From a virus (lineage: Duplodnaviria > Heunggongvirae > Uroviricota > Caudoviricetes), in the IMG/VR virus record IMGVR_UViG_3300029488_000242: a DNA stretch of 64,000 nucleotides. One strand, 5' to 3'. The stretch's first letter is position 1. Each line of letters starts with the position of its first letter. The position numbers and the translations under genes are program-made. Below are positions 6,456-50,229 of this stretch, piece by piece. Below the pieces are notes generated by a model. That model ran no database searches, was not told the origin of the DNA, and saw nothing but the letters and a program-made list of their open reading frames with translations.

Positions 6456-6473
6456 GAAAGGTGTATTAAAAGA

Positions 6474-6650
6474 ATGAAAAAAGTGGTGGTACAGTATGAT
6501 GAAGCAGTTAGGTTTTACGATAATGTGACAAAAATACAATATTTTGGGGCAGGTGATTTCTTTGAAGCATATTTTGTTATATATCAGGGAAAAGAAAAGA
6601 CGGTGATTATGCTAAGTGAAATTAATGGTCTTGAAATCAAAGAAGAGTAA
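6474..6650 (+). CDS. hypothetical small protein (58 aa)
   Basis: hand-found ORF, weak RBS. Confidence 0.3.
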   Translation: MKKVVVQYDEAVRFYDNVTKIQYFGAGDFFEAYFVIYQGKEKTVIMLSEINGLEIKEE

Positions 6651-6698
6651 AGATAGATAAGACTTGTAAGCAAGCGTAAATTAAATAGAGAATAATAA

Positions 6699-6732
6699 GG
6701 CAGATGGATAAATAAAATTCATCTGCTTTTTT
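6699..6732 (+). terminator. rho-independent terminator (ggcagatgg...ccatctgc + T6)
   Basis: stem-loop followed by TTTTTT; preceded by AGAGAATAATAAGGCAGA box. Confidence 0.7.
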
Positions 6733-6776
6733 AGTGTAACTAACAAAGAATTTCAAGAAAGGTTAAGGTAAATATT

Positions 6777-7262
6777 ATGAGAGTAAACGAAGTAAGAAAA
6801 ACAGAAACAATTGAGAAGTTAGTAAGAACAGAGTACATTGCAGAAGATGGCACAGTATTTAGAAGTGAAGAGGAGTGCAAAAAGTATGAGGAATCAGCAT
6901 TATTTGCAATTAGTAAAGAGTTAAAGAGACTTGATAATAAGAAAAATGGAGCTTCCGAATATGATATTTATGATGAATGTTCTGATGAATATCTGGTAGA
7001 GATTTTTAATGCAGAAACAGAAAGAGATATTGAGAATATTAGAAGATATGTATATCTCAAAGCTCTTTCAAATAGTTCATATGCGAGAAAGGAAGATGTT
7101 GATTTACCTAATATCACAGCAGGGCATGAAGTAATTATTCATTGGAACTATGACGAAGATAGTTGTTGGACTATTGGTAATGGAAGTATTGATGCTTTCT
7201 GTGGCTATATTAGAGAGAATCTTATGAGTTTAATCACACCAAAGGAAGAGAAAACAGAATAA
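6777..7262 (+). CDS. hypothetical protein
   Basis: ORF track; RBS aaggttaagg. Confidence 0.55.
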   Translation: MRVNEVRKTETIEKLVRTEYIAEDGTVFRSEEECKKYEESALFAISKELKRLDNKKNGASEYDIYDECSDEYLVEIFNAETERDIENIRRYVYLKALSNSSYARKEDVDLPNITAGHEVIIHWNYDEDSCWTIGNGSIDAFCGYIRENLMSLITPKEEKTE

Positions 7263-7276
7263 TACAGAGAATAACA

Positions 7277-7308
7277 AGGCAGACGCAAACAAATGTGTCT
7301 GCCTTTTG
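7277..7308 (+). terminator. rho-independent terminator (aggcagac...gtctgcct + TTTT)
   Basis: stem-loop plus T-run; same AGAGAATAACAAGGCAGA box as at 6686. Confidence 0.7.
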
Positions 7309-7328
7309 TAATGGAAGGAGTGAATGAA

Positions 7329-7667
7329 ATGATTATATTGCAAAGAGATTCACGGTATGAGGTGGGCGATCCTGATTGTGTGTTCAAAGTAAAATCAGGT
7401 GACTTAATTACGCCCATAAAGCGAATTGGATATAAAACTACATTTGATGATTGGAAAGATTACGGAGAAATTACGGATGAAGATATAGAAGATTTATATA
7501 TTTTCTGTTGTCCTAATAACAATGAAACTCAAACAGAAATTTATATTTCAATTTGTTCAAATTGGGATTTGATTTTTGTTGGTAGGTATAAAGGTGTTTT
7601 CTTTGATAATACGGAGGCTATTACAGCAAAGATTAATGCATGGATTAACAATAATATGGAGGTGTGA
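7329..7667 (+). CDS. hypothetical protein
   Basis: ORF track frame; RBS aaggag. Confidence 0.5.
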   Translation: MIILQRDSRYEVGDPDCVFKVKSGDLITPIKRIGYKTTFDDWKDYGEITDEDIEDLYIFCCPNNNETQTEIYISICSNWDLIFVGRYKGVFFDNTEAITAKINAWINNNMEV

Positions 7668-7669
7668 TT

Positions 7670-7891
7670 ATGAACACATTAGAAGATATTCTAAATACAT
7701 TAGGAAGTAAAAAACCATTCTTAGACAAGATAATAATTGATGAAGATGGTGGAAGGCAACCATTCACTAAAGGCGGTGCTAAAGCATATGAAAAATTGAC
7801 AGAAATCTTATATGCGGTTGGAGAACTTACTAACACAGATATGAATGATATTGTTGAAGAATTAGATAGTATAGCAAATCAGGATATGTAG
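7670..7891 (+). CDS. hypothetical protein
   Basis: ORF track frame; RBS ggaggtg. Confidence 0.45.
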   Translation: MNTLEDILNTLGSKKPFLDKIIIDEDGGRQPFTKGGAKAYEKLTEILYAVGELTNTDMNDIVEELDSIANQDM

Positions 7892-7903
7892 GAGGTAAGC
7901 GAA

Positions 7904-8107
7904 ATGGTACAATTACGGCAATACAAAATGGTTGAAGGAATTGGAAGTCATTGGAATAAACGATGGGAAATCCAAGAGAAATATAAATATTTTGAAAATG
8001 GAGAATGGGTTTATTCCTGGCATTTAGTATTTTGGAGCAGTGATAAAGCGAGATGCGAAGAAGTGTTTGAGAAATATAAAAAATTAGGAGGTAAGCGAAA
8101 TGATTGA
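7904..8107 (+). CDS. hypothetical protein
   Basis: ORF track; RBS ggaggtaagcgaa. Confidence 0.45.
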   Translation: MVQLRQYKMVEGIGSHWNKRWEIQEKYKYFENGEWVYSWHLVFWSSDKARCEEVFEKYKKLGGKRND

Positions 8108-8411
8108 GTTAAAAGATTTATTGGAAGAAAATGAAACACTTGTAACATTTCATCTTTGCAATGAATATTGGTCACGGAATGCAATCACAGTAAAAGGAAA
8201 TGATGATATTTCTGGTGCATTAGAAATGACATTACATAGAATACTTGAAGCTGGTGGAATAGAAGATGATGTAAAGCGAATTATGGGTGCTGAAATTCCA
8301 ACAGAAGATGAACTAAAAGAACTTGAAGAGTTTGATGAATTTAGTTGGATAGATTTAGGTTATGTATTACCTGGTTTAATTGATTTATGGGAAGAAAGCG
8401 AGGTTGATTGA
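8100..8411 (+). CDS. hypothetical acidic protein
   Basis: ORF track; identical RBS context ggaggtaagcgaaatg. Confidence 0.45.
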   Translation: MIELKDLLEENETLVTFHLCNEYWSRNAITVKGNDDISGALEMTLHRILEAGGIEDDVKRIMGAEIPTEDELKELEEFDEFSWIDLGYVLPGLIDLWEESEVD

Positions 8412-8412
8412 T

Positions 8413-9387
8413 ATGACAATAGAAATATTAAAAACCAGAATAGATGAAATATTAAAGAAAATGTGGGGTGTAAATGAAGATGGTGGCATCGAAATTTATA
8501 CTGACTACAGAGAAAGAGAACTTTCTGATAGTTTCTTAAAAGAGATATTTGAGCATGATAATCCAAGAGAGGCATTTAATGATGAATTAGCTGATTGGGC
8601 TATGGATTATGCAATGGAGTATGGAGAAGATGAGTTTGAAAAGGATATTCGTGAAGAAATGACGGATGAAGAGGAAGAGTATTTTACAGATAATTTTAAT
8701 GAGATATGGGAGTATGTAAGAGAAAATACATATTTTTATTACAACGCCGAGGATTTTAATAATGAAGTCAAAGTAAATATTATGGTGGATTGTGGTAATT
8801 GGAATTACGATTGCGTTTGCGATAATGTTCTGAATTGGTATGGAAATTCAGGAGATGGAAGTATTGACAAAGAATCATCTATGCTATGGTCAGCAAAAAC
8901 ACAAGGTAAAGCAACAGCATTAAGAAAGGCATGTAAACAAGTACATAGGGATGATGGATATTATGTAGATAGAGATAAAAACAAAGACAAATTTATAGAA
9001 AGCTGCATACAGGAATTTGAAAATCTTCCATCACATATGGCAACTGTAACATTTCTTGTAAAAATGCCGTTATTTGATTTGTTTGATTTAATCGAATTAC
9101 AGAATAAAGAATATGACGAAAAAGGAAAATATGATCCACGAAAGAATGAAAAATCAAAATCTTATATAGTTCTTGGAAAAGAAACAATGTGTGGGTTGTA
9201 TGATTCTTGGTCTGGTGGTGGTTCTGTATTAGAAGTAGAACTGGATAAGGATGTTAAACTTCCTATTAAATATGCAATCTTTTGTGTAGAGGGATGTAAG
9301 ATGCATGGATATGATATTGATGAAGTTTATGGACTGATTGATAGTTGTTGGAAAGAAACAGTAAAGGAAATAAAAGAGGTTGCATAA
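8413..9387 (+). CDS. hypothetical acidic protein (324 aa)
   Basis: ORF track frame; RBS gaggt. Confidence 0.55.
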   Translation: MTIEILKTRIDEILKKMWGVNEDGGIEIYTDYRERELSDSFLKEIFEHDNPREAFNDELADWAMDYAMEYGEDEFEKDIREEMTDEEEEYFTDNFNEIWEYVRENTYFYYNAEDFNNEVKVNIMVDCGNWNYDCVCDNVLNWYGNSGDGSIDKESSMLWSAKTQGKATALRKACKQVHRDDGYYVDRDKNKDKFIESCIQEFENLPSHMATVTFLVKMPLFDLFDLIELQNKEYDEKGKYDPRKNEKSKSYIVLGKETMCGLYDSWSGGGSVLEVELDKDVKLPIKYAIFCVEGCKMHGYDIDEVYGLIDSCWKETVKEIKEVA

Positions 9388-9435
9388 AACCAAAGGAAAG
9401 AACTGTTTCTAATGAAGAAAGTGAGGTACAAAAAA

Positions 9436-9624
9436 ATGATAGTAAAAGCAATATGGGAATTTGATGTAGATGATTCTGAAATGGATGGAAAATGTGTAGA
9501 TATAAAAGGATTATGTGAAGATCTAACAAGAAGAGAATTGGAATATTGTTTGAAACACAATCAATTAAATGCTGATGATTTTCAATATGAATGTCATCCT
9601 GAATTGCCTAGTGACTGGGATTAA
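9436..9624 (+). CDS. hypothetical protein
   Basis: ORF track frame; RBS gaaagtgaggt. Confidence 0.4.
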   Translation: MIVKAIWEFDVDDSEMDGKCVDIKGLCEDLTRRELEYCLKHNQLNADDFQYECHPELPSDWD

Positions 9625-10134
9625 GAAAGTGAGGTAACTTATGGTAACAAACGAAATGAAAGAACTATTAAAGAAAATAGCAGACTTAGCTTATCAAGCA
9701 TCAGAGGAAGTTTATGATGATGATAATGAAAATGGAACAGCAGGAATATTAAATCTTTGTGACAAATTATATGAAAAAATTGATGAATATTTAGGAGGTA
9801 ATACAAATGTATAAAAGTGCAATTGTAGATGAACTTGGACAGGTCGTGTTTTGATGTGATGAATTGTAAGGTAGTGAACGGATTAGTGTATCTTAAATAG
9901 TCATCCTGAATGGTCTATTAAATGTGTAGAAATATAGAAAGCGAAGTGCAAAAATCATGTTGGAAGATATTTATAAAATGCTTGGATTCGATGATACGGT
10001 ATTTGATACAGAAACGAAAACAGATAAGGCTCATACTAAGTTAATGAAGTTGCTTGATATGTGTGAGAGGCTTGGAATTATAGGAATAGTCGATGAGGAT
10101 ATGTTAGATAGAATAGAAAGTGAGGATTTTTAAT

Positions 10135-10395
10135 ATGTCAAATAATTCAAATTTAAGAATTACAAAATGTATAAATGTATTTTCTGATATGAATACATGG
10201 ATTGATTTTGTAATAATTCCTTGCAATGATAAGGATTTTACAAAGGCAGAAGAGATTGTTAGAAAAGCATATGATGATTGGTGGACACTTCCTGATGCAG
10301 AGTTTGAGCCAATAGCTGATTGGGTTTGCAGATGTCTGATTAATAATGATATTGAATTTGAAATTTATTTTAAAGATGAAGAAGAGAGTGCTTAA
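10135..10395 (+). CDS. hypothetical protein
   Basis: ORF track frame. Confidence 0.4.
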   Translation: MSNNSNLRITKCINVFSDMNTWIDFVIIPCNDKDFTKAEEIVRKAYDDWWTLPDAEFEPIADWVCRCLINNDIEFEIYFKDEEESA

Positions 10396-10396
10396 A

Positions 10397-10585
10397 ATGA
10401 AGAGAACACCAAAAGTAATTAAGCAGCAAACGGAAGAATGGTTAGATGAACGGTGGATGATTGCAAATATGAAAGATGCAAGACCACAAGATATGAGTTA
10501 TTACAATGGAGCTTTGAAAGCCCTTGAATTTGCAGGTTACGAATGGAAACGTGATGCAGATGGAAAACATACATTATTTAAGTAG
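10397..10585 (+). CDS. hypothetical protein
   Basis: ORF track frame. Confidence 0.4.
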   Translation: MKRTPKVIKQQTEEWLDERWMIANMKDARPQDMSYYNGALKALEFAGYEWKRDADGKHTLFK

Positions 10586-10594
10586 ATTGGAGTG

Positions 10595-10882
10595 ATGAAA
10601 ATGAAAAAAGAAAATTTTATGAGAGAAATTGCACTTCTTAAAGAAGATGGAGACAGCTTTGGATTTGTATTAGATGGAAATACACAAAAAGGTATTGTGA
10701 TATTTGTTGTTCCTGATTGTGATTCTGAAAGTGAAAATGCGATGGAATATATGATTGAAGGCAATAACATTGTAGATGGTGCTTTTGAACCATGTTCTGA
10801 TTACAATTATTCGTGTGCTTACCCAGATTGGAATGAAGCTTGGGAATTGACTCAAATGATGATTAGAGAATTGTTGAAATAG
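10595..10882 (+). CDS. hypothetical acidic protein
   Basis: ORF track frame; RBS ggagtg. Confidence 0.45.
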   Translation: MKMKKENFMREIALLKEDGDSFGFVLDGNTQKGIVIFVVPDCDSESENAMEYMIEGNNIVDGAFEPCSDYNYSCAYPDWNEAWELTQMMIRELLK

Positions 10883-10904
10883 CAATTTCATAAGGAGGTT
10901 TGAC

Positions 10905-11129
10905 ATGAGATTACATCTATTTTGGCTTGATAAGAATTGGAAGAAACGTGGTGATTGTGCAAATAATTATAACCTCATTGTTTATATGGAAAATAAAACA
11001 TATAAGGTATATACGAATGCTTTTTATGGATATTATCATCAAGAAGATATTGAAGTTAAAAAGAAATCAGATATTGAAGATTACATAGAGTATTTAAAGA
11101 GAAATGGATTTACAGAAATGGAGCGATAA
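10905..11129 (+). CDS. hypothetical protein
   Basis: ORF track; RBS aaggaggt. Confidence 0.45.
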   Translation: MRLHLFWLDKNWKKRGDCANNYNLIVYMENKTYKVYTNAFYGYYHQEDIEVKKKSDIEDYIEYLKRNGFTEMER

Positions 11130-11132
11130 ATC

Positions 11133-11369
11133 ATGACAGTGAGAGAATTAAATAGAGATCAATTAACTGAATTAAAGCGTATGTATTATGTACAACTTGT
11201 CAATGAATGCTTATTTGCAAAAGTAATGGGTGTTGATATTGATGAACCATCATATGACATGATAGAGAAAGTCAACGAATATGTCTCGGATGAAGTTATT
11301 TTCGATGCATATGATAACACTGTGTTTACAGAAGATGATTTCTTCTGTAGTGCGGAAAGGAGTGCTTAA
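11133..11369 (+). CDS. hypothetical protein
   Basis: ORF track. Confidence 0.45.
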   Translation: MTVRELNRDQLTELKRMYYVQLVNECLFAKVMGVDIDEPSYDMIEKVNEYVSDEVIFDAYDNTVFTEDDFFCSAERSA

Positions 11370-11614
11370 TATATTGGATATTACAAATTTATATGCTTAC
11401 AGAATTGAAGAATTGGCTGTTGGAATTGTAAAGGCAGAGTCATATGAAGATGCAAGAGAAAAGGTGAAAGCAGCTTATTTGAAGCACAACGATTGCTTTG
11501 ATTCTGAAAGAGATTTTATTGAGTTAAAGGAAATTGCAGAGAATGATTCGTGGTTTAGTGATAATCCTGATGTAGTTGAAGTCGATGAATTAGTGTAGAA
11601 ATGGAGTGACAAAT

Positions 11615-22911: not shown

Positions 22912-23169
22912 TTGAGTAGATATAAGAATGGAAACCCAAAACATGCAAGTCGATTCATATGTTTAAAATGTATGAATGAAAATATGTTAGCCAGTGGAAT
23001 TCAGAGACAGAGACAAAGAGAACGAAAACATATTAAGGATTTGTATTGTTTGAAGTGTGGAGAGGTAACGAAGTGCATCGAAGTAAGATTTTGTGATTCT
23101 TATGAAGAAATTTTTGAGGTTGCAAAGATAAAAAGAGAGAATTATTACATAGACAATTATGAAAGGTAG
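22912..23169 (+). CDS. hypothetical zinc-ribbon protein (TTG start)
   Basis: ORF track; CLKC...CLKCGE. Confidence 0.4.
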   Translation: MSRYKNGNPKHASRFICLKCMNENMLASGIQRQRQRERKHIKDLYCLKCGEVTKCIEVRFCDSYEEIFEVAKIKRENYYIDNYER

Positions 23170-23173
23170 GTTG

Positions 23174-24199
23174 ATGATAATGTGTTATAAAATAGAAGTG
23201 CAGAATAAAAATGCGGAGAAGCTTAATAAAAAATTAGATGAGTTAAATGCACCACAATTTTTAAGAGATTACTTAAATGAGTTGGAAAGCAAAAACGGAG
23301 CGTTAAATTATCTGGTAGCAATTAAAGATTTTTTACAGTGGTTAATTGAAAATAATATCATTAATAAGAAACTAATTTCTGAAATAGAAGTTTCCGATTT
23401 TAATGACCTAAGACCACAAAATATTAGTTCATATCTTAGATATAAGGAAACAAATGGAATGTCACCAACCACAACGGAAACAAGAAAAAACATCATTAAA
23501 AGTTTTATACAGGATATTTATTCATATAGAGAATGTTTGTTGAGAGAACTCTATAACAGTATGAAAGATTTTAATAAACAAATAAAATATAAAGGAATAT
23601 CTTCTAAAAACAACTTAACACAAAAACTTCCAACAGAAAATCAGCTTAATGATATGGAAGAAAAAATAATGTGTAAAAAGGACGAATGTGTAAGGAATAG
23701 GAATATTGCTATTTTTCGTGTGTTAAGAGGAACTGGAATAAGAGAGTCTGAACTTGCTGGCTTGGATTTATCAGATTTGCATTTAGATGAAAATAGTGAA
23801 TATATTGATCTTAATGATATGTCACATATTATGGTTTTACCAAAAGGAAACCAAAGAGAAACTGAAAAAAGACCTGTATATCTTACTGGATCTGCTCTGA
23901 AAGCATTAAGAGAATGGCTAGAGTACAGAAATACATTGAATAATATTGTAGACAAAGAAGCTGTGTTCATAAATAAAAATGGTACACGTACAACAGAGAG
24001 AAATATCAAACAGATATTTGAGAATTATGGAAATGGTATTACTCCACATATGATGAGACATTATTATGCCAGTGTAATGAATCAGAATGGAAATCTTGCA
24101 TTTGTACAGCAACAGCTTGGACATAGTAGTGTGAATACAACAGTTAATAACTATGCGAATGGTGCAGTGGGAATGAAAGATGTGTTAAATAATATGTAA
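23174..24199 (+). CDS. int: tyrosine recombinase / phage integrase (XerC/D family); alternative starts 23159 or 23180
   Basis: C-terminal catalytic motifs HMMRHYYAS...LGHSSVNTTVNNYANG (H-x-x-R ... Y); N-terminal SAM-like core-binding region. Confidence 0.85.
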   Translation: MIMCYKIEVQNKNAEKLNKKLDELNAPQFLRDYLNELESKNGALNYLVAIKDFLQWLIENNIINKKLISEIEVSDFNDLRPQNISSYLRYKETNGMSPTTTETRKNIIKSFIQDIYSYRECLLRELYNSMKDFNKQIKYKGISSKNNLTQKLPTENQLNDMEEKIMCKKDECVRNRNIAIFRVLRGTGIRESELAGLDLSDLHLDENSEYIDLNDMSHIMVLPKGNQRETEKRPVYLTGSALKALREWLEYRNTLNNIVDKEAVFINKNGTRTTERNIKQIFENYGNGITPHMMRHYYASVMNQNGNLAFVQQQLGHSSVNTTVNNYANGAVGMKDVLNNM

Positions 24200-29837: not shown

Positions 29838-31226
29838 ATGGGAAACGATAGAATGACAATTTGTAGAAAAATTAAATTATTTCCAGTAGGAGATAAGGAA
29901 GAAATCAATAGAGTATATGACTTTATTAGAAATGGTCAGTATGCTCAATACCAAGCTTGTAACTTACTTATGGGACAGCTTATGAGTGAATATTACAAAT
30001 ACAATCGTGATATTAAGAATGAAGAATTTAAGGCAAGACAGAAAGAAATAATGACAAACTCTAATATCATATTAAAAGATATTGATTTTGCAACTGGTGT
30101 AGATACCCCATCAGCCGTTACGCAGAAAGTCAAGCAGGATTTTAGCACAGCTTTGAAGAATGGATTGGCAAAGGGTGAAAGAACAGTAACAAATTATAAG
30201 AGAACTAATCCACTTATTACAAGAGGTAGAAACTTAACTTTTTATCATGAGTATGAAACATATCAAGATTTCTTGGATAAAATTAATGATTGTGATTTGA
30301 CGGTATATGTTAAGTGGGTTAATAAAATTGTATTCAAGGTTGTGTTTGGTAATCCGCATAGGTCATTAGAATTAAGATCTGTTATACAGAATATCTTAGA
30401 AGAGAATTATAAAGTACAAGGAAGTAGTATTGAAATTGATGGTAAGTCAATCATTTTGAATCTTTCAATATCTATTCCAAAACAACTTAGAGAGTTAGAT
30501 GAGAATACAGTAGTCGGTGTTGATTTGGGTATTGCTGTTCCTGCGATGTGTGCTTTGAATAATAATTTTTATGAGAGATTGGCGATTGGAAATGCAGATG
30601 ACTTCCTAAGAATAAGAACTAAAATGCAAGCTCAAAGAAGAAGATTACAGAAGTCATTGAGAAATACTTCTGGCGGTCATGGTAGAGCAAAGAAACTAAA
30701 AGCATTAGAAAGATTACAGAAAACAGAGGCACATTTTGTTGAAACATATTGTCATATGATAAGTAAAAGAGTTGTTGATTTTGCTTTAAAACATAATGCT
30801 AAATACATAAATATTGAAAATTTAACAGGATATGATACAAGCGATTTTATCCTGAGAAATTGGAGTTATTATAAACTTCAAGATTATATTACATATAAAG
30901 CAGCTAAGTACGGAATTGAAGTAAGAAAAATCAATCCTTGTTATACATCACAGATTTGCAGTGTATGTGGTAATTGGGAGTTTGGTCAGAGAAAGTCACA
31001 GTCAGTATTTGAATGTGCAAATGAGAATTGTGATAGTCATAAGAAATATGAGAAAATTGGATTCAATGCTGACTTTAATGCTGCCAGAAATATTGCAATG
31101 TCAACTCTTTGGATGGAAAGTGGACAAGTTACTGAAAAGAGTAAGCAGGAAGCAAGAGAATATTATGGTATCTCTAAAAAGTATGAACAGAATAAGAATG
31201 ATTTGGAGAATAATAAAGTAGCCTAA
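29838..31226 (+). CDS. tnpB: TnpB / Cas12f-like RuvC-domain RNA-guided nuclease homolog (IS200/IS605 OrfB family), catalytic residues apparently intact
   Basis: RuvC-I VGVDLGIAVPA, RuvC-II YINIENLTG, zinc finger CSVCG...C..C, RuvC-III NADFNAARNIA; 462 aa. Confidence 0.8.
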   Translation: MGNDRMTICRKIKLFPVGDKEEINRVYDFIRNGQYAQYQACNLLMGQLMSEYYKYNRDIKNEEFKARQKEIMTNSNIILKDIDFATGVDTPSAVTQKVKQDFSTALKNGLAKGERTVTNYKRTNPLITRGRNLTFYHEYETYQDFLDKINDCDLTVYVKWVNKIVFKVVFGNPHRSLELRSVIQNILEENYKVQGSSIEIDGKSIILNLSISIPKQLRELDENTVVGVDLGIAVPAMCALNNNFYERLAIGNADDFLRIRTKMQAQRRRLQKSLRNTSGGHGRAKKLKALERLQKTEAHFVETYCHMISKRVVDFALKHNAKYINIENLTGYDTSDFILRNWSYYKLQDYITYKAAKYGIEVRKINPCYTSQICSVCGNWEFGQRKSQSVFECANENCDSHKKYEKIGFNADFNAARNIAMSTLWMESGQVTEKSKQEAREYYGISKKYEQNKNDLENNKVA

Positions 31227-38223: not shown

Positions 38224-38670
38224 TTGATGAAATATAGAGAAGAAAATAAAGACTTGTTTACAGTACCAGAAGATTATTATTTAGCACATTGTATTAGTGC
38301 TGATTTTGGAATGGGTAAAGGAATTGTAGTTGAGTTCAATAAAAGGTTTGATATGAAAAGAAAACTACTAACAAAATATCCAGATTATCTTAATCAGTAT
38401 ACTCATAAAAGAATTGATAGTGACTGTCTTTTAGAAGGTAGAGTATTAAATCTCATTACAAAAGAGAGATATTTTCACAAGCCAACAATTATCACAATGA
38501 GACTTGCACTTGAAAAAATGAAACAGATTTGTTTAAAGAATAATATCAAAAAGATTGCAATGCCTGTAATTGGTTGTGGTTTAGATAGGTTGAACTGGAA
38601 TGATGTCTCAGAACAGATTAAAAGTATTTTTGCGGATACGGATATTGAGATTTTAGTATGTAAGAGGTGA
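38224..38670 (+). CDS. macro-domain-like (ADP-ribose binding/processing) protein
   Basis: LAHCISADFGMGKGIVVEFNKRF ... IAMPVIGCGLDRLNWNDVSEQIKSIF resemble macro-domain core motifs. Confidence 0.5.
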   Translation: MMKYREENKDLFTVPEDYYLAHCISADFGMGKGIVVEFNKRFDMKRKLLTKYPDYLNQYTHKRIDSDCLLEGRVLNLITKERYFHKPTIITMRLALEKMKQICLKNNIKKIAMPVIGCGLDRLNWNDVSEQIKSIFADTDIEILVCKR

Positions 38671-38673
38671 ACT

Positions 38674-39447
38674 ATGGCAGTATTTGTAACAGGCGATATA
38701 CATGGAAATCCTGTAAGATTAAGTAAAGATAGTTTCTATGAACAGAAAGATTTCTCTGGAAATAAAGATGAGAACATTGTAATTATTCTTGGCGATTTTG
38801 GTCTTGTATGGAACAGAGATGGTGAAAGCAAACAGGAAAAATATTGGTTGGATTGGTTAAATCAGAAATCATTCACAACTATATTTGTTGACGGAAATCA
38901 CGAATGTTTTCCAAGAATCTATAGTTATCCTATAAAAGAGTGGCGTGGTGGTAAGGTTCATGAAATTAGATCCAATGTATTACATTTAATGCGTGGCGAA
39001 GTGTTTACCATTGAAAATAAGAAATTCTTTGCATTTGGTGGTGCATCAAGTCATGATATTCAGGATGGCATTCTTGATTACAATGACGAAGATTGGAGAG
39101 AAGAAGCCAAGAAGCTTGATAAGCAAGGTAAGTATATGTATCGTATCAAGGATTTATCTTGGTGGAAAGAGGAATTGCCAACAGATGAAGAAATGCAGTA
39201 TGGACTAGAGGTTTTAAAAGAAAATAACAATATAGTTGATTATATTATTACACATAGCCCTTCTACATCAGATTTGTATCTTATGGGTGGTAAAGGATTA
39301 TATGAATCAGATATATTGACTAATTATTTGGAAGAAGTGAAAGCTACAACTGAATACAAAAAACATCTGTTTGGTCATATGCATTTAAATAAGGCAATCA
39401 ATGACAGAGATATTTGTTTGTATGAACAGATTGTTAGGATATTGTAA
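38674..39447 (+). CDS. calcineurin-like metallophosphoesterase
   Basis: GDIHGN, GDFG, GNHE, GH motifs in canonical order. Confidence 0.8.
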   Translation: MAVFVTGDIHGNPVRLSKDSFYEQKDFSGNKDENIVIILGDFGLVWNRDGESKQEKYWLDWLNQKSFTTIFVDGNHECFPRIYSYPIKEWRGGKVHEIRSNVLHLMRGEVFTIENKKFFAFGGASSHDIQDGILDYNDEDWREEAKKLDKQGKYMYRIKDLSWWKEELPTDEEMQYGLEVLKENNNIVDYIITHSPSTSDLYLMGGKGLYESDILTNYLEEVKATTEYKKHLFGHMHLNKAINDRDICLYEQIVRIL

Positions 39448-40115: not shown

Positions 40116-41039
40116 ATGTCATGTGGACACATTGCATTAGAGAAAGCAGGATTTAATGTTGGTAAATATTTTGCATCAGAGATTAAGGACGTGGCAATTA
40201 AGGTAACAAGAGACAACTATCCTGAGACAATTCACATTGGAGATGTGAACAAGATTACATATAAAGATGGTGTATTACATACAGAAGTCGGAGACTTTGA
40301 AACAGATATTGATATTGTAATGTTTGGTAGTCCTTGTCAGAGTTTTTCAAGAGCAATGATTAAAGAGAGAAAGATTGGTCTTGAAGATCCAGAACGTTCA
40401 GGTCTGTTTTATGAGTGCAATAGAGTATTGAAAGAAGTAAATCCAAAGTATTTCCTTATGGAAAATGTAGTGATGAAACCTGAAGATGAAGCCGTTATTA
40501 GTGAAATGATGGGAGTAAAACCTATCAGAATCAATTCTTCTCTTGTAGTAGGACAGCTTAGAGATAGATATTATTGGACTAATATTCCAGGAGTAACAGT
40601 TCCAGAAGATAAAGGAGTTACTTTACAAAGTGTACTCAATGATGGATATGTACCAAACGAGAAAGCAAAATGCCTTTGCAAGAATGATTCTCACGGATAT
40701 TACAACGGCTGTTTTTGGACACCAATTAAGAGGTTTCACAGATTCTATTATAAGTCGTTTGGAACAATGGTGTTCCCATCGAAAGAGTATTTTGATAACT
40801 GTTTAGAGGTTACAAAGAGAATATTAGATGGAAGAAAATCTTCTGCAAAAATCTATGATGATTACAATGGTCATGATTTTGATGAAGCAAGATATTTATG
40901 GAAAGAAGAGAGAGCAAGATTGCAAGGAGTTCCAGAAGAATATGTAGAAAATATGACTGAAAAAGATGCGGCAGATGTTCTTGGTGATGGTTGGACTGTA
41001 CCTGTAATCGCACACATTTTCAGTTTTATGAAATTTTAA
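40116..41039 (+). CDS. DNA (cytosine-5)-methyltransferase; motif I continues in-frame upstream of the only ATG with no start codon available (N-terminus unresolved)
   Basis: GSPCQSFS (motif IV), ENV (motif VI), motif I ...LNVLSLCDG|MSCGHIALEKAGF split by the ATG; in-frame TAG at 40065-40067. Confidence 0.75.
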   Translation: MSCGHIALEKAGFNVGKYFASEIKDVAIKVTRDNYPETIHIGDVNKITYKDGVLHTEVGDFETDIDIVMFGSPCQSFSRAMIKERKIGLEDPERSGLFYECNRVLKEVNPKYFLMENVVMKPEDEAVISEMMGVKPIRINSSLVVGQLRDRYYWTNIPGVTVPEDKGVTLQSVLNDGYVPNEKAKCLCKNDSHGYYNGCFWTPIKRFHRFYYKSFGTMVFPSKEYFDNCLEVTKRILDGRKSSAKIYDDYNGHDFDEARYLWKEERARLQGVPEEYVENMTEKDAADVLGDGWTVPVIAHIFSFMKF

Positions 41040-41952: not shown

Positions 41953-42150
41953 ATGGTAGATATTCAATGTAAAGACGGAAAATATATTATTGACGCAAGA
42001 ATTCATAGTGAAGTTGATACAAATGATATTGCAAAAGTGCAGGAAAGATTTACTTCTGATTGTGCTTATGAGTTTGCAGAAGCTATGAGAGAAGCAGTAA
42101 ACGTTAGCCATTTGGTAATGAAAGAACAAAGAAAAGAGGTAACAAAATGA
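41953..42150 (+). CDS. hypothetical protein
   Basis: ORF track frame 41899..42150; ATG after previous stop. Confidence 0.35.
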   Translation: MVDIQCKDGKYIIDARIHSEVDTNDIAKVQERFTSDCAYEFAEAMREAVNVSHLVMKEQRKEVTK

Positions 42151-42659
42151 GAGAAACATTAATTGTTGTAGATATGCAGAATGATTTTATTGATGGAACA
42201 CTTGGTACAAAGGAAGCACAGGCGATTGTATCAAATGTAGCAAAGAAAATTAAGGAGTACAAGGATGCTGGTAAACAGGTAATCTTTACAAGAGACACAC
42301 ATCCCGAGAATTATTTAGAGACATATGAAGGTATACATCTTCCTGTTACTCACTGTGTAAAGAATACTGCTGGTTGGCAGATTTCAGATAAGTTAGATTT
42401 TGATATTGATAATGACATTCTGATTGACAAAATTACTTTTGGATGGACTCATTGGGATGATTTTAGATTTGAAAGCGTTGAGATTTGCGGATTATGCACC
42501 GATATCTGCGTGATTTCAAATGCACTTATTATTAGAGCAAACTATCCTGAGATTGATATTACAGTAGATGCAAGCTGTTGTGCAGGTGTCACACCTGATA
42601 CTCACAAGGCTGCATTAGCAACTATGAAGATGTGTCAGATTGAAGTGATTGGAGAGTAG
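42147..42659 (+). CDS. pncA: isochorismatase-family cysteine hydrolase, nicotinamidase (PncA)-like
   Basis: LIVVDMQNDF start, conserved Lys and catalytic Cys (ICGLCTDICV). Confidence 0.7.
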   Translation: MRETLIVVDMQNDFIDGTLGTKEAQAIVSNVAKKIKEYKDAGKQVIFTRDTHPENYLETYEGIHLPVTHCVKNTAGWQISDKLDFDIDNDILIDKITFGWTHWDDFRFESVEICGLCTDICVISNALIIRANYPEIDITVDASCCAGVTPDTHKAALATMKMCQIEVIGE

Positions 42660-42662
42660 AAT

Positions 42663-43499
42663 ATGATTAAAATTAATGGCGATATTGTAACAATCAATAA
42701 GTTCCCAGATGGAACACCAAGAGTAAATATTGATATAAACAACATTGAGGAAGACTCTTATGATGGCTCTCCTTGTATTTGGATTGAATGGATTTATGAG
42801 AGTAACGATGAGATATTTTATCTGATGTTAGTAAAGAAACATCTTGAAAGATTTTTTACTAATGTGGATTATTATTTGTCTCTTCCATATATTCCTAATG
42901 CACGAATGGATAGAGTAAAAAATGATGATGAAGTATTCACATTGAAGTATTTTTGCGATTTTATCAATTGGTTAGGATTTTCATCAGTTTATGTTTTAGA
43001 TGCTCATAGCGATGTTTCTACTGCATTACTCAATAATTGTGTAAAAGAAAATCCAAAAGAGTATGTTGATAAAGCTATTTCAAAGATTGGTATGAGAAAT
43101 CTTGTACTTTATTTTCCAGATGCAGGTGCAGCTAAGAGATATTCAGATTTATTCCCTGAGTTACCGTATTGTTATGGTGAAAAGAAGAGAGATTGGAAGA
43201 CTGGTAAAATCCTTGGATTAGACATTAGAACAAATGGTATTGATTTGAAGGATAAAGCTGTGTTAATGATTGATGATATTATCGCATATGGCGGTTCACT
43301 TTATTATAGTGCAGAAGAATTAAAGAAACATGGTGTAACTGAGATTTATGCGTATGCAACACATACAGAGAATTCAATTCTTGATAAAGAAAAAGGAACG
43401 TTGATCAAGTCTTTGGAGAATAATACAGTGAACAGATTATTTACGACAAACAGTTTATTTAATGGTAGTCATGAAAAAATTACAGTTATGGAGGTTTAA
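42663..43499 (+). CDS. ribose-phosphate pyrophosphokinase (PRPP synthetase)-like protein; could instead be an ADPR-pyrophosphate synthetase (Adps) type
   Basis: VLDAHSD, FPDAGAAKR, PRPP-binding loop VLMIDDIIAYGGSL. Confidence 0.7.
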   Translation: MIKINGDIVTINKFPDGTPRVNIDINNIEEDSYDGSPCIWIEWIYESNDEIFYLMLVKKHLERFFTNVDYYLSLPYIPNARMDRVKNDDEVFTLKYFCDFINWLGFSSVYVLDAHSDVSTALLNNCVKENPKEYVDKAISKIGMRNLVLYFPDAGAAKRYSDLFPELPYCYGEKKRDWKTGKILGLDIRTNGIDLKDKAVLMIDDIIAYGGSLYYSAEELKKHGVTEIYAYATHTENSILDKEKGTLIKSLENNTVNRLFTTNSLFNGSHEKITVMEV

Positions 43500-43503
43500 A
43501 ATT

Positions 43504-44964
43504 ATGGATAACACAATGGCTTTATTATTATCAGATACTTATAAACAGTGTCATGATCGCATGTACCCAAATGGTTTGACTAAATTGGTGTCGTATTGGG
43601 TGCCTAGAAAATCAATGTTAGAGAATCAGAATGAAATGGTTTTCTTTGGATTACAGGCATTTATCAAAGAATATTTAATGGGATATTTTCAGAAAAATTT
43701 CTTCGATTTATCGGAAGATGAGATGCTAACTCTTTATACAGATTCGATGGACGTACAGATTGGTAGAGACAACTATGATTTAGATAAAATTGTAGAGCTT
43801 CACAGATTAAGATATTTACCACTTGAGATTAGAGCATTACCAGAAGGTACACTTGTTCCTATGGGTGTTCCTTGTATTGAGATTACAAATACGGATGATA
43901 AATTTGCTTGGCTTGTTCAGTGGATCGAATGTATTCTTCAGGTAGAATTATGGAAGCCTTGTTGTCATGCAACTATCGGTCATATGTATCGTGAGATTGC
44001 AGATTATTGGTATAACAAGACAACAGACGGGTTGCCTGGAAATATGGCTTGTGCAGATTTTGGCATGAGAGGAATGTCTTGTATGGATGAAGCTACAAGA
44101 TGTTCAGCATCATGGTTGCTTTCATTTAATAAGACATCTACAATTCCAGCAATTAATTATATTGATAGATATTACAATGCCGATTGTAAGAATAATGGTA
44201 TTGGAATCGGTGCTGTCTCAACTGAGCATTCTGTAATGGGGGCTAATTTCTCAATTGATGGAGATGAGATTACGTTCGTTAAGAGACTTTTAACAGAGTT
44301 ATATCCAAATACATCATTTAGTATGGTTTCAGATACTTATGATTATTGGAATATGGTAAATAATATTCTTCCACAGTGTAAAGAAGAGATTATGAATCAT
44401 AATGGAAAGCTCTTGGTTCGTCCTGATAGTGGTGATATTGTAGAGATTTCAGTTAAGACAGTTGAAAGGTTATGGGAGATTTTTGGTGGTTCTGTAAATG
44501 GTAAAGGTTATAAGGTATTAAATCCGCATATCGGTATTATTTATGGTGATGGCTGCACACTTTCTAATGTAGAAACTATTTGGAAAGAATTAGAAAAGCG
44601 TGGTTTCGCAGCTAATAATATTGCTTATGGTGTAGGAGCTTTTTGCTTCACTGCAATCGTTGAAAATGGCAAGATGATTGTTGTTACAAGAGATACTTTT
44701 GGTATTGCAATGAAAGCTACATATGGAGTAATTGATGGTAAGAAGTTAATGATTTTCAAAGATCCTAAGACAGATACGAGTCACTTAAAGAAATCTCATA
44801 AAGGATGTTGTAGAGTATACGATGATAACGGTGAATTAAAGTGTCAAGATCAGTTACTTGAAATGAGTGATAACAGTTTACTTACTACCGTATTTAAAGA
44901 TGGAGAGTTAGTAAGAGAAGATACATTTGCGGATATCAGAAACAGAATGTACGGAGGTAAGTAA
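43504..44964 (+). CDS. nadV: nicotinamide phosphoribosyltransferase (NadV/NAMPT family)
   Basis: N-terminal LLLSDTYKQCH signature, ~486 aa; RBS ggagg. Confidence 0.8.
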   Translation: MDNTMALLLSDTYKQCHDRMYPNGLTKLVSYWVPRKSMLENQNEMVFFGLQAFIKEYLMGYFQKNFFDLSEDEMLTLYTDSMDVQIGRDNYDLDKIVELHRLRYLPLEIRALPEGTLVPMGVPCIEITNTDDKFAWLVQWIECILQVELWKPCCHATIGHMYREIADYWYNKTTDGLPGNMACADFGMRGMSCMDEATRCSASWLLSFNKTSTIPAINYIDRYYNADCKNNGIGIGAVSTEHSVMGANFSIDGDEITFVKRLLTELYPNTSFSMVSDTYDYWNMVNNILPQCKEEIMNHNGKLLVRPDSGDIVEISVKTVERLWEIFGGSVNGKGYKVLNPHIGIIYGDGCTLSNVETIWKELEKRGFAANNIAYGVGAFCFTAIVENGKMIVVTRDTFGIAMKATYGVIDGKKLMIFKDPKTDTSHLKKSHKGCCRVYDDNGELKCQDQLLEMSDNSLLTTVFKDGELVREDTFADIRNRMYGGK

Positions 44965-45425
44965 TGATTAAAATTATTGATGGAGACTTGCTCACTTCGA
45001 ACACTGATATTATTGCGCACCAGGTTAATTGCAAAGGTGCTTTTAATTCTGGTGTTGCAAAAGCGATCCGTGATTATGATGCGCAAGTATATAAAGATTA
45101 TCATAGTTTTTGTTCGATTAACACACCTGAACAATTATTGGGTTCTGTTAGATATTTTCAGTCTAATATTGACGCAAGAATATATGCAAATTTATTTGCA
45201 CAAAAATCATATGGCTATGACGGAAAACAGTATACAGATATTAATGCTTTAAGAAAATGTTTTGAAAATTTGAGATCATATGCAGTTTTGGAAAATATGA
45301 GTATTGCAATGCCATATAAAATTGGATGTGTTCGTGGCGGTGCAAATTGGGAAGAAGTGTATCAAATGATAAATGATATATTTGAAAATTGTAATATTGA
45401 ATTATGGAGGTTAGATAAAGGATGA
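44964..45425 (+). CDS. macro-domain protein (ADP-ribose / ADPR-1''-phosphate processing type)
   Basis: IIDGDLLTSNTDIIAHQVNCKGAFNSGVAKAIR matches macro-domain N-terminal motif; ATGA overlap with nadV. Confidence 0.7.
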   Translation: MIKIIDGDLLTSNTDIIAHQVNCKGAFNSGVAKAIRDYDAQVYKDYHSFCSINTPEQLLGSVRYFQSNIDARIYANLFAQKSYGYDGKQYTDINALRKCFENLRSYAVLENMSIAMPYKIGCVRGGANWEEVYQMINDIFENCNIELWRLDKG

Positions 45426-46180
45426 GTAATTTTGATGCTAAGAAAGTAAAGAATGAGATCGTAGAGTGGATTAGAGATTGGTTTGAACAGAATGGTAAAG
45501 ATTGTATGGCAGTAGTTGGAATTTCTGGCGGTAAGGATTCAAGCGTTGTTGCTGGCTTATGTTGTGAAGCTCTTGGAAAAGATAGAGTTTTTGGTGTAAT
45601 GATGCCACAGGGAGAACAGCCAGATATTGATTATTCTCGAATGCTTATAGACCATCTTGGAATCGACAGTTGTGTTGTAAATATAGGCAATACAGTTCGC
45701 ACTTTAAAGCATGAGATTAAACCACAGTTGGGAGATCATTGGTCAAAGCAGACTTCTACAAATCTCCCTGCTCGTATTCGTATGACTACGCTTTATGCAG
45801 TATCGCAGACAGTAAATGGTCGTGTCGCTAATACGTGTAATCTTTCAGAAACATTACTATCTTGGGAAACCAGATGGGGTGATGCAGTTGGAGATTTTGC
45901 ACCAATTAGCGACTTAACAGTAAAAGAAGTGAAAGCTATTGGATATGAACTTGGATTGCCAAATGAATTAATCGAAAAAATTCCGTCTGATGGACTGTGT
46001 GGAAGTACAGATGAAGATGCATTGGGATTTAAATACTCTGTTATGGATAGATATATTAGAACAGGCGAGATTGACGACAAAGATATTAAAAAGAAAATTG
46101 ATAATCGAGTAGAAAAATATCGGTTTAAGAGAATGCCTATTCCTTATTATAAAACAGGTATGGAAAGATATGTAGACTAA
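45422..46180 (+). CDS. nadE: NH3-dependent NAD+ synthetase (NadE)
   Basis: PP-loop VVGISGGKDSSV (SGGxDS) and overall NadE-like layout. Confidence 0.85.
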   Translation: MSNFDAKKVKNEIVEWIRDWFEQNGKDCMAVVGISGGKDSSVVAGLCCEALGKDRVFGVMMPQGEQPDIDYSRMLIDHLGIDSCVVNIGNTVRTLKHEIKPQLGDHWSKQTSTNLPARIRMTTLYAVSQTVNGRVANTCNLSETLLSWETRWGDAVGDFAPISDLTVKEVKAIGYELGLPNELIEKIPSDGLCGSTDEDALGFKYSVMDRYIRTGEIDDKDIKKKIDNRVEKYRFKRMPIPYYKTGMERYVD

Positions 46181-46181
46181 A

Positions 46182-47381
46182 ATGGCAGAAGACTTAACTA
46201 ATTTACAATTTGGAAAATTAACAGTCATCAAACGTGGAGACAACGATAAAAGCGGACATGTGAGATGGTGGTGTAAATGTGACTGTGGCAACCCTAAATT
46301 GATTTTAGTTGCCGCAGGACATTTAAAATCAGGACATACTCAATCATGTGGATGTATAAGAAGAGATAATATTAAACCACAAAAGAATTTAGAAGGAAAA
46401 AGATTTGGGAAATTAATTGTAAAAGAATTTCTTGGTATAAAAAATCATAGATCATTATGGAGTTGTGATTGTGATTGTGGTAAGAAAATTAACGCTTTAT
46501 CATCGTCTTTAACTTCTGGAAAACTTAAGTCATGTGGATGTTTATCTTCTGTAGCTGAGTTCGAATTAAGCCAGTTCTTGACAGATGAACAAATTATATT
46601 TGATACGCAATATAAGTTTGATGATTGTAAATATAAAAGAAGATTGCCATTCGATTTTACAATTTTTCATCCACAAAATAAGAAACTCTTATTTTTAATT
46701 GAACTACATGGAGAACAGCATTATTTTCCGTTTACATTTAATAGTGAGTCTGATATGCAAAAGAAGGAAAATTTTTTGCATAGAAAACATTTGGATAAAT
46801 TAAAAGAAGATTATTGTAGTGAAAATAATATTCCATTGTTAATTATTAGATATACAAATTTTCAAACAAAAGAAAAAATTGTAAAAGGGTTTTATGAAAA
46901 GCTCTTGCAAAAGAATATTACATTTGATGATTATATATTTTCATCAAAACAAATAAAGGATGATTTACAAGTAAAGCATAAACGTGTCTATAAAAGAAAA
47001 GTAGTCCAAATAGATATACCCAACAAGAATATTATAAGAGAATATAATAGTATGGAAGAGGCATATAAGATAACTGGAATATCATCTGGACAGATTTCGG
47101 ATTGTTGTAAGGGTAATTGTAAAACAGCAGGTGGATATGCTTGGGCATATAATAACGGAAACGTTAATATTGAAGAAGTAATTAAACGTGCAACAATTCC
47201 AAATAGAACAAATGCAGTTGTGATTTTCCAAAAAGATAAAAATGGAAATATTATAAAAGAGTGGCAAAGTATAACAGAAGCAGCACATTCTTTGGGAGTA
47301 AGTCATCAAGGTATTCAAGCGTGTTGTTCAGGAAAGCAGAAAACTTGTAAAGGATTTGTTTGGAATTATAAGAAAGATTGA
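46182..47381 (+). CDS. homing-endonuclease-like protein: two Zn-ribbon (W-C-x-C-x-CG...SCGC) repeats + Vsr/DUF559-like PD-(D/E)xK core + two C-terminal NUMOD/IENR-type DNA-binding repeats
   Basis: WWCKCDCG...SCGC x2; PFDFTIFHP...IELHGEQHY; EAYKITGISSGQISDCCKGNCKTAGGYAWAY and EAAHSLGVSHQGIQACCSGKQKTCKGFVWNY. Confidence 0.55.
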   Translation: MAEDLTNLQFGKLTVIKRGDNDKSGHVRWWCKCDCGNPKLILVAAGHLKSGHTQSCGCIRRDNIKPQKNLEGKRFGKLIVKEFLGIKNHRSLWSCDCDCGKKINALSSSLTSGKLKSCGCLSSVAEFELSQFLTDEQIIFDTQYKFDDCKYKRRLPFDFTIFHPQNKKLLFLIELHGEQHYFPFTFNSESDMQKKENFLHRKHLDKLKEDYCSENNIPLLIIRYTNFQTKEKIVKGFYEKLLQKNITFDDYIFSSKQIKDDLQVKHKRVYKRKVVQIDIPNKNIIREYNSMEEAYKITGISSGQISDCCKGNCKTAGGYAWAYNNGNVNIEEVIKRATIPNRTNAVVIFQKDKNGNIIKEWQSITEAAHSLGVSHQGIQACCSGKQKTCKGFVWNYKKD

Positions 47382-47450
47382 TTCAATGCATGAGAAAAAT
47401 CTGTTTAAATTACAGCTAATGCCAAGTTTTGTGTATCAGGCGTAAATGAG

Positions 47451-47498
47451 ATACTATATATAGTGTTTATAGAAAATATAGACACTATATATAGTAAT
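47451..47498. promoter_or_regulatory. paired palindromic boxes atACTATATATAGTgt-N15-acACTATATATAGTaat
   Basis: seen in sequence; ~31-bp centre-to-centre. Confidence 0.6.
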
Positions 47499-49353: not shown

Positions 49354-50229
49354 ATGTTAGAGATTAACAAAATATACAATGAAGATTGCCTTGAAGGTAT
49401 GAAAAAGATTGATGATAAATCGGTCGATTTCATCTTCACAGATCCACCTTATAATACGACTAATAATTCTTGGGAATGTGAAATGCCGTTAAATGATTAT
49501 GTCGAGTTATCAGGACAATATTTCTATGAAACAGATCTATTTAATTTGGCTCAAGTAACAAATAGTAGTCTTGAGTATACAAGAGATTGGTTTTATGAGA
49601 ACAAAAAAGATGGTTTATGGACTCATTACAATCGAATTATCAAAGATAATGGTTGCATTGCATTATGGGCGCAATCACCATTTGATAAGAGGCTCGCTTG
49701 TAGTAATGAAAAGCTATATCGCTATGAATGGATTATCGAAAAGACCAAAGCAACTGGTCATCTAAATGCAAAGAAAATGCCTATGAAGGCACACGAAAAT
49801 GTCTTGATTTTCTATAAGAAACTCCCTACATATAATCCACAAATGACAGAAGGACATACGCCTGTTCATTCTTATACAAAGCATACGACAGATGGTAACT
49901 GTTATGGTGCTACAAAGACTGGTATTTCAGGTGGTGGCAGTACACAAAGATATCCAAGAGATGTTCTGCAGTTCAAGTGGGATACTCAGAAAAGTAGCTT
50001 ACATCAGTGCCAAAAGCCTGTTGAAGCGTGTGAGTATTTTATTAAGACATATACCAATCAAGGAGATTTAGTTCTTGATTCATGTGCAGGAAGTTGTACA
50101 ACTGCAATTGCAGCTTTAAATACAGGTAGAAATTACATATGTTTTGAGAAAGATAAGGATATTTTTGAGGTTGGAAGTAAGAGAGTAGCTGAATATGCTA
50201 ATCAAGATTTGTTGATGAGTGCTACATAA
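49354..50229 (+). CDS. beta-class DNA amino-methyltransferase (N6-adenine or N4-cytosine)
   Basis: DPPY (motif IV) near N-terminus, motif I DSCAGSCTT near C-terminus. Confidence 0.75.
   Translation: MLEINKIYNEDCLEGMKKIDDKSVDFIFTDPPYNTTNNSWECEMPLNDYVELSGQYFYETDLFNLAQVTNSSLEYTRDWFYENKKDGLWTHYNRIIKDNGCIALWAQSPFDKRLACSNEKLYRYEWIIEKTKATGHLNAKKMPMKAHENVLIFYKKLPTYNPQMTEGHTPVHSYTKHTTDGNCYGATKTGISGGGSTQRYPRDVLQFKWDTQKSSLHQCQKPVEACEYFIKTYTNQGDLVLDSCAGSCTTAIAALNTGRNYICFEKDKDIFEVGSKRVAEYANQDLLMSAT

Follow-up and report, generated by a model that had tools for sequence, protein, structure and literature searches.

We analysed a stretch of 64,000 nucleotides (the window) from the IMG/VR virus record IMGVR_UViG_3300029488_000242, a member of the Caudoviricetes, and characterized a group of five genes that encode enzymes of nicotinamide adenine dinucleotide (NAD+) metabolism. 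An earlier note, made by reading the sequence, had described five contiguous or overlapping genes at 42147-46180, and this layout was recovered in full. All five open reading frames (ORFs) are on the + strand and form one tightly packed operon, in which neighbouring genes abut or overlap by 1-4 nt. The motifs LIVVDMQNDF, VLMIDDIIAYGGSL, LLSDTYKQCH, and SGGKDSS were all found in the operon translations. The genes, and a larger unit that spans three of them, are the following:

42147..42659, + strand: PncA-type nicotinamidase (ORF1), 170 amino acids (aa); proposed to convert nicotinamide to nicotinate
42663..43499, + strand: Adps-like homologue of Prs (ORF2), 278 aa; proposed to convert ADP-ribose (ADPR) and ATP to ADPR pyrophosphate (ADPR-PP)
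43504..44964, + strand: Namat-like ADPR transferase without the nicotinamide-specifying Asp (ORF3), 486 aa; proposed to convert ADPR-PP and nicotinate to nicotinic acid adenine dinucleotide (NaAD)
44964..45425, + strand: Poa1p-like macro domain (ORF4), an Adpp candidate, 153 aa; proposed to convert ADPR-1''-phosphate to ADPR
45422..46180, + strand: NH3-dependent NAD+ synthetase NadE (ORF5), 252 aa; proposed to convert NaAD to NAD+
42663..45430, + strand: exchangeable cassette of Adps, Namat-like, and Adpp genes between conserved PncA and NadE arms

The mechanically called ORF of the transferase begins at 43462 (500 aa). The gene probably starts at 43504, because a GGAGG sequence lies 9 nt upstream and close homologues are also 486 aa long. 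Shine-Dalgarno-like sequences precede the three operon gene starts that were inspected, and terminator-like sites inside the five-gene cluster were weak 5-bp stems at most. The window is low in GC (~31%), carries nearly all of its genes on the + strand, and matches human gut viral contigs of about 90-196 kb at 98-99% identity. A nucleotide search found no near-identical cultured phage among 50,697 phage records. Stop-codon recoding, known from the related phage Phass-1 (code 15), was considered and rejected for the window, since reading through TAG, TGA, or TAA yielded no substantial increase in long frames.

Profile searches supported the identities of all five genes, which the earlier note had assigned from motifs. 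ORF1 matched the Pfam Isochorismatase family (E 8.5e-28), and its closest solved structure was the nicotinamidase of Pyrococcus horikoshii (1IM5/1ILW, E 1.7e-16). D9, K95, and C121 as well as D50, H52, and H69 of ORF1 align with residues of the P. horikoshii enzyme that we take to be its catalytic Asp-Lys-Cys triad (D9/K95/C121) and its metal ligands (D50/H52/H69). ORF5 was identified as NadE with NAD_synthase (E 1.4e-50) and TIGR00552 (168 bits, cut-off 63.65) and has the SGGKDSS PP-loop. ORF4 matched the Pfam Macro family weakly (20.3 bits, cut-off 22) and PHROG 335 strongly (E 3.8e-39). It was 34% identical (E 3e-25) to the macro gene located between Adps and Namat in Vibrio phage 184E37-3b, and its direct sequence match to yeast Poa1p (6LFQ) was weak (E 0.03-0.08); related phage genes carry the annotations Poa1p-like or Appr-1-p processing.

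ORF2 and ORF3 were found to be closest to enzymes that handle ADPR. ORF2 hit PHROG 619, named 'ribose-phosphate pyrophosphokinase' (E 1e-64), but fell under the NCBIfam cut-off for Prs (91 vs 113 bits). It was 36% identical to the assayed Adps of phage SPbetaL1 (E 4e-43), while the top solved Prs scored merely 52 bits. ORF3 matched the NAPRTase and NAMPT_N profiles and NF006629 (464.6 bits, cut-off 405), and scored 384 bits against the SPbetaL1 Namat structure 9W5X vs 186 bits against human NAMPT. The earlier note had left two routes open for this pair, one using phosphoribosyl pyrophosphate (PRPP) and one using ADPR-PP. These comparisons favoured the second, of the Adps/Namat type, over the first. 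In keeping with the earlier note, which recognised no NMN (nicotinamide mononucleotide) adenylyltransferase nearby, a tblastn search (E <= 0.01) found no NadD-type adenylyltransferase in the 64 kb, the KVP40-type Nmnat not being among the queries, and neither PncB nor NadD was found there.

Adps and Namat together make up the NAD+ reconstitution pathway NARP1, which rebuilds NAD+ from ADPR, ATP, and nicotinamide (Osterman et al. 2024, bioRxiv 10.1101/2024.02.11.579819). NARP1-AP adds Adpp, a Poa1p-like macro phosphatase that converts ADPR-1''-phosphate, made by the aRES defence, to ADPR, and a macro gene of the Adpp type is present in 15% of NARP1 operons (bioRxiv 10.64898/2026.01.28.702374). 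The three middle genes of the operon fit NARP1-AP, and the suggestion that the macro domain of the window returns ADPR-1''-phosphate to ADPR agrees with this preprint of January 2026. The structures of Namat (9W5X/9W5W) revealed an adenine 'selectivity clamp', the activity of SPbetaL1 Namat with nicotinamide is reduced 8-fold by D215A, and Namat keeps activity with PRPP in vitro (PMC12774641). In human NAMPT, the equivalent Asp219 has been described as the determinant of substrate specificity, and D219S switches the substrate (Khan et al. 2006, as cited in PMC4919578 and PMC7096376). NAMPT D219, H191, a water held by G217, and Y188 form a described hydrogen-bond network in the tunnel wall beside the nicotinamide site, where G217R creates a basic patch.

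To characterize the transferase of the window, we aligned ORF3 with Namats and with human NAMPT, whose numbering (F193, D219) agrees with the published F189/D215 equivalents. The motif that holds the specificity Asp, GTDT in Namat and NAMPT, reads NKTST in the window, LNTAT in phage MT835544, and DRTAT in Phass-1. The position of NAMPT D219 and Namat D215 is therefore Ser in the window and Ala in the other two phages, and all three have PncA and NadE beside the Adps-transferase pair. The HDF motif of Namat and NAMPT is changed to ADF (window) or GDF in these phages.

We then surveyed 150 representatives of Namat/NAMPT-like proteins, clustered at 50% identity. The residue at the Asp219 position was Asp in 95, Glu in 2, and Ala, Ser, or Val in 51. 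His191 was missing from all 51 Asp-less representatives and Gly217 from most, with Lys at position 217 in 46% of the group. The ten columns that best separated the Asp and Asp-less groups were NAMPT D219, H191, A244, V242, G217, S241, P273, Y188, I309, and K189. The Asp-less group conserves the catalytic core (Y18, F193, R196, H247, R311, and D313), and within the ADPR-PP clamp the Arg was found in 42 of 51 representatives and the aromatic residue, which human NAMPT does not have, in 48 of 51. The window transferase itself retains the core Y, F, R, H, R, and D as well as the clamp aromatic F. The pyridine side of the pocket thus appears to have been rebuilt, with the ribose-phosphate and adenine side kept. 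Among the Namat representatives, some homologues of the Asp type (P0150, P0205, and P0224) have insertions of ~300 aa with intein-like ends (Cys ... His-Asn), located exactly inside the clamp-helix motif.

We examined the gene neighbourhoods of Namat-like genes by scanning their flanks with small profiles for PncA, NadE, Adps, macro, PncB, and NadD; the whole sample comprised ~360 loci from viromes, metagenomes, and genomes. In a first sample of viral contigs, PncA or NadE was found in 0 of 70 loci of the Asp/Glu type, and one or both were found in 10 of 10 Asp-less loci. The second viral sample gave 69 linked loci out of 69 for the Asp-less type (65 with both genes) and 0 out of 9 for the Asp type. 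Species-representative genomes contributed 80 loci, all Asp-less and nearly all arranged as PncA-Adps-Namat-NadE, mostly from metagenome-assembled genomes of Clostridia and also from the isolates Pseudoruminococcus massiliensis and Clostridium sp. HCP1S3_C6. Pooled over 281 loci, PncA and/or NadE lay within ~7 kb in 199 of 200 Asp-less loci vs 0 of 81 of the Asp/Glu type. The sole unlinked Asp-less locus is a 3.7-kb contig, and the 81 Asp/Glu-type controls gave no match to PncA or NadE even in a loose search at E <= 1. The association held when loci were clustered at 70% identity (18/18 Asp-less clusters vs 0/49 Asp/Glu-type). A further 80 Asp-less loci from metagenomes, in which both genes were missing only on contigs shorter than 4 kb, added new lineages and the pocket variants C/NSS, S/KTA, S/NTA, and S/GTA.

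Linkage persisted in bacteria and in lineages as distant as 32% identity, whose genes were in shuffled order. The PncA/NadE-linked lineages showed five or more gene orders, and the linked NadE was an NH3-type (~250 aa) or a glutamine-type (~655 aa) enzyme. A macro gene was adjacent in 62 of 200 Asp-less loci (31%), which we read as a sign that ADPR chemistry is likely retained. The earlier note had regarded PncA and NadE, with the macro domain, as additions that make a broader set than the described minimal pathways. Both genes are indeed present, but they do not look like mere extras, since the loss of the Asp in the transferase tracks their presence as neighbours. Chance neighbourhood and remnants of cassette swaps were rejected as the main explanation for PncA and NadE, because the linkage extends to remote lineages and to bacteria and is seen with several gene orders. 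Confounding by host taxon was also rejected, as loci of the Asp/Glu type from the same gut virome dataset (L119, L120, L152, and L167) lack PncA and NadE. Scans seeded with P0160 and P0135 missed their own lineages in the viral collection but returned other useful loci; one seeded with P0156 returned a single, unrelated locus.

Gut Clostridia and their phages commonly carry the same set of genes. At three loci (L323 at 6424-11495, L385, and L330), a PncA-Adps-Namat-NadE operon with a glutamine-dependent NadE was located among ordinary cellular genes of Clostridia. The PncA and Adps of the window were 54% and 41% identical to their counterparts in the bacterial operon, that of L323 in the case of PncA. 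A protein from a metagenome-scaffold operon was identical to one in a 4.78-Mb contig of Cellulosilyticum (Cellulosilyticum sp. WCF-2). The operon may thus have been a cellular pathway first and a phage tool second. Genes like those of NARP1 have been reported in bacterial chromosomes, with their role called unclear (Osterman et al. 2024, bioRxiv 10.1101/2024.02.11.579819).

We also compared the window with its siblings, defined as 80 loci with a PncA 91-100% identical to that of the window. Two forms were found in nearly equal numbers: PncA-Adps-Namat-(macro)-NadE in 39 loci and PncA-DUF5662-PncB-NadD-NadE in 40, with one locus unreadable. The sibling PncB scored over its NCBIfam cut-off (483 vs 379 bits) and the sibling NadD slightly under (102 vs 112). 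The two forms have 99% DNA identity through 42662, which lies three bases after the stop codon of PncA, and identity returns at 45431, nine bases into NadE (98.7% in L071). With near-identical flanks on both sides, the interior, 42663-45430, is an exchangeable cassette. PncB and NadD are the textbook route from nicotinate to NaAD, and they fill exactly the gap between the PncA product and the NadE substrate. The absence of NadD where Adps and Namat are present therefore fits a product that is already NaAD rather than nicotinic acid mononucleotide (NaMN).

Several features of the sibling loci and of the surrounding region were recorded in addition. The DUF5662 gene (L010, 6503-7069) is always ahead of PncB in the alternative cassette. 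Four siblings (L007, L025, L043, and L045) have partial operons, with Adps but no detectable Namat or with no macro gene; possibly they are copies that are degenerating or have been rearranged, or errors of assembly. A homing-endonuclease gene of the HNH/NUMOD type follows NadE in the window (46182-47381). Right after it, the 23 codons at 47374-47442 match the C-terminal end of another NadE allele at 96% identity. Past the endonuclease gene, at 47452-47496, a hairpin with a 20-bp stem and a T-rich tail is the first strong terminator-like site that follows the operon. NadE identity among siblings ranges from 50 to 100%, independent of the cassette type. This range and the foreign NadE remnant suggest allele replacement driven by the endonuclease.

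About 3.5 kb upstream of the operon, a second and more distant macro gene (38224-38670; E 7e-07 to the Vibrio NARP1 macro) is directly followed by a calcineurin-like metallophosphoesterase gene (38674-39447), and the pair is present in only some siblings. The two may be fused in other phages, because PHROG 335 models a 422-aa protein, and they might process other molecules derived from ADPR. The window also has integrase-like and transposase-like genes and two methyltransferase-like ORFs (23159-24199, 29838-31226, 40116-41039, and 49354-50229). Two window ORFs were called DNA methyltransferases by reading the sequence rather than by profile search. The methyltransferase region at 40116-41039 differs greatly between siblings, which indicates a highly mosaic accessory region.

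Based on these results, we consider it probable that the operon is a deamidated form of NARP1, which would rebuild NAD+ through nicotinate and NaAD. In the proposed scheme, a defence NADase would split NAD+ into ADPR (or ADPR-1''-phosphate) and nicotinamide. PncA would deamidate the nicotinamide to nicotinate, and Adpp, the macro protein, would strip the 1''-phosphate where present. Adps would then pyrophosphorylate ADPR to ADPR-PP, and the Namat-like enzyme with its rebuilt pyridine pocket would join nicotinate and ADPR-PP into NaAD. Finally, NadE would amidate NaAD to NAD+, so that nothing would be left to the host. It is the substrates of the Adps and transferase steps, and NaAD as the product, that we infer here. 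The general purpose proposed in the earlier note, countering defences that deplete NAD+, was supported.

That the five genes belong to one closed pathway, rather than to NARP1 with accessories, is indicated by the co-occurrence of Asp loss with PncA and NadE and by the PncA...NadE frame holding PncB-NadD in siblings. The pathway through nicotinate and NaAD is the simplest that uses every operon gene without a gap. It would resolve the apparent conflict between a nicotinamidase and a Namat that both consume nicotinamide, and a transferase product that is NaAD would explain why NadD leaves together with PncB in the swap. From the same comparisons we lean, on balance, towards a wider reading, in which the Asp-less relatives of Namat would be nicotinate ADP-ribosyltransferases that catalyse an undescribed reaction (ADPR-PP and nicotinate to NaAD). 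The self-contained PncA-Adps-transferase-NadE recycling would then be native to the chromosomes of many gut Clostridia, recur in their phages as an anti-defence module, and exist as a balanced polymorphism with the PRPP-based PncB-NadD cassette in one phage species.

A number of observations weigh against the route through nicotinate and NaAD. It costs one more ATP than NARP1, and the benefit is not apparent. The commonest replacement of the Asp is Ala, not Ser, and human NAMPT loses its activity through D219A, in an assay presumably run with nicotinamide. PncA alone or NadE alone is also found on other gut phage contigs. Distance clustering placed the Asp-less group essentially in one clade. 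The pocket may therefore have changed only once in history, and the linkage would be persistent rather than the outcome of many independent events. The clamp of the window protein also deviates. Its clamp-helix region, GAFCFT-AIVENGKMI-VVTRD, keeps the aromatic at position 3 but has a 9-aa insertion and no aromatic at the equivalent of position 7, and Met stands opposite the clamp-loop stacking residue R40 of SPbetaL1 Namat. Because of the Met and the insertion, use of ADPR-PP by the window protein is less certain than for most of the clade.

Among the alternatives, an ordinary NARP1-AP with helper genes fares best, and we regard it as unlikely. The transferase would use nicotinamide, and PncA and NadE would be retained ends of the Preiss-Handler pathway that boost host PncB and NadD in parallel. 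This fits the closest relationship of ORF3, which is to an assayed Namat, and the swap, which shows PncA and NadE to be shared homology arms; phage Preiss-Handler clusters are known, and PncA or NadE can stand alone in phages. However, PncA would compete with Namat for nicotinamide, and the nicotinamide-specifying Asp is gone together with its entire network, where D215A already cuts Namat activity 8-fold. Nor does a passive remnant explain the exceptionless linkage (the 3.7-kb contig aside) between Asp loss and PncA/NadE, which extends to bacteria and to distant lineages with reordered genes.

A route based on PRPP appears quite improbable to us. The Prs-like enzyme would make PRPP, the Asp-less enzyme would be a nicotinate phosphoribosyltransferase that yields NaMN, host NadD would convert this to NaAD, and the phage NadE would finish. 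NadD is nearly universal in hosts, Asp loss also fits the use of nicotinate with PRPP, and Namat keeps its PRPP activity in vitro. The other genes of the cassette argue differently: ORF2 groups with an assayed Adps and not with Prs, and macro genes resembling ADPR-1''-phosphate phosphatases accompany 31% of loci. The clade also conserves both the Arg and the aromatic residue of the adenine clamp, the latter being missing from human NAMPT. In addition, the sibling cassette has its own NadD with PncB, yet NadD is dropped where Adps-Namat replaces them. Classical NadV salvage, in which PRPP and nicotinamide would give NMN for a host NMN adenylyltransferase to finish and the other genes would be unrelated auxiliaries, has the database names 'nicotinamide phosphoribosyl transferase' and 'ribose-phosphate pyrophosphokinase' in its favour but is very improbable, given that the tblastn search found no Nmnat in the window, that the genes are translationally coupled in one operon, and that all points against the other two alternatives apply to it too.

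We compared the operon with described systems. Like NARP1, it has an adjoining pair from the Adps and Namat clades, keeps the catalytic core and the clamp aromatic, and presumably rebuilds NAD+ from ADPR. Unlike NARP1, it has Ser, Ala, and Lys replacing Namat Asp215 and the His187/Gly213 network. Its clamp-helix motif contains an insertion of 9 aa, and Met replaces the clamp-loop Arg; pairs of the window type are always accompanied by PncA and NadE, and the predicted product is NaAD, not NAD+. The operon resembles NARP1-AP of Vibrio phage Gary (Adps-Adpp-Namat) in including a macro gene, which is probably Poa1p-like. We read this likeness via the 184E37-3b macro gene (34% identity, same three-gene layout) and not via the assayed Gary Adpp itself. 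The macro gene of the window, however, comes after the transferase rather than before it, and the operon has two further enzymes.

The pncB-nadD-nadE clusters of the Preiss-Handler pathway known in gut jumbo phages (PMC11662467) are related in that PncA and NadE are Preiss-Handler enzymes and the siblings hold a complete PncA-PncB-NadD-NadE set at the same locus. The window differs from them in having Adps-Namat-Adpp instead of PncB and NadD, and its phages, of about 90-196 kb, are not jumbo phages. The window protein has Ser at the same position as the human NAMPT D219S mutant, but it represents a natural family in which the surrounding network was rebuilt too, and its predicted substrate is ADPR-PP, not PRPP. 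NARP2 (Nampt and Nmnat, in KVP40) and NARP3 (PnuC and NadR, PMC13464706) are also phage pathways that restore NAD+, whereas the window operon has no Nmnat, PnuC, or NadR and differs in both ribose donor and pyridine substrate. The NARP literature that we searched has no mention of NadE, PncA, or nicotinic acid, and a literature search tying NARP1 to NaAD or nicotinamidase returned nothing relevant. The macro part is already published, while four features seem not to have been described before: the link to PncA and NadE, the rebuilt pocket, the occurrence of this operon on bacterial chromosomes, and the polymorphism of the cassette.

If true, the proposed pathway would be an enzymatically distinct branch of phage NAD+ reconstitution, with a new reaction that forms NaAD from ADPR-PP. 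Pipelines that label such loci as plain NARP1 or NadV would mis-predict their substrates, and a simple sequence rule, which reads the motif at position Asp219 and looks for NadE/PncA neighbours, would set them apart. The bacterial copies of NARP1 with an unclear role form a four-gene operon here, which suggests that Clostridia recycle ADPR and nicotinamide routinely. Within one phage population, the swap between the Adps-Namat-Adpp and PncB-NadD cassettes would be a natural experiment on which defences favour rebuilding NAD+ from ADPR and which from PRPP.

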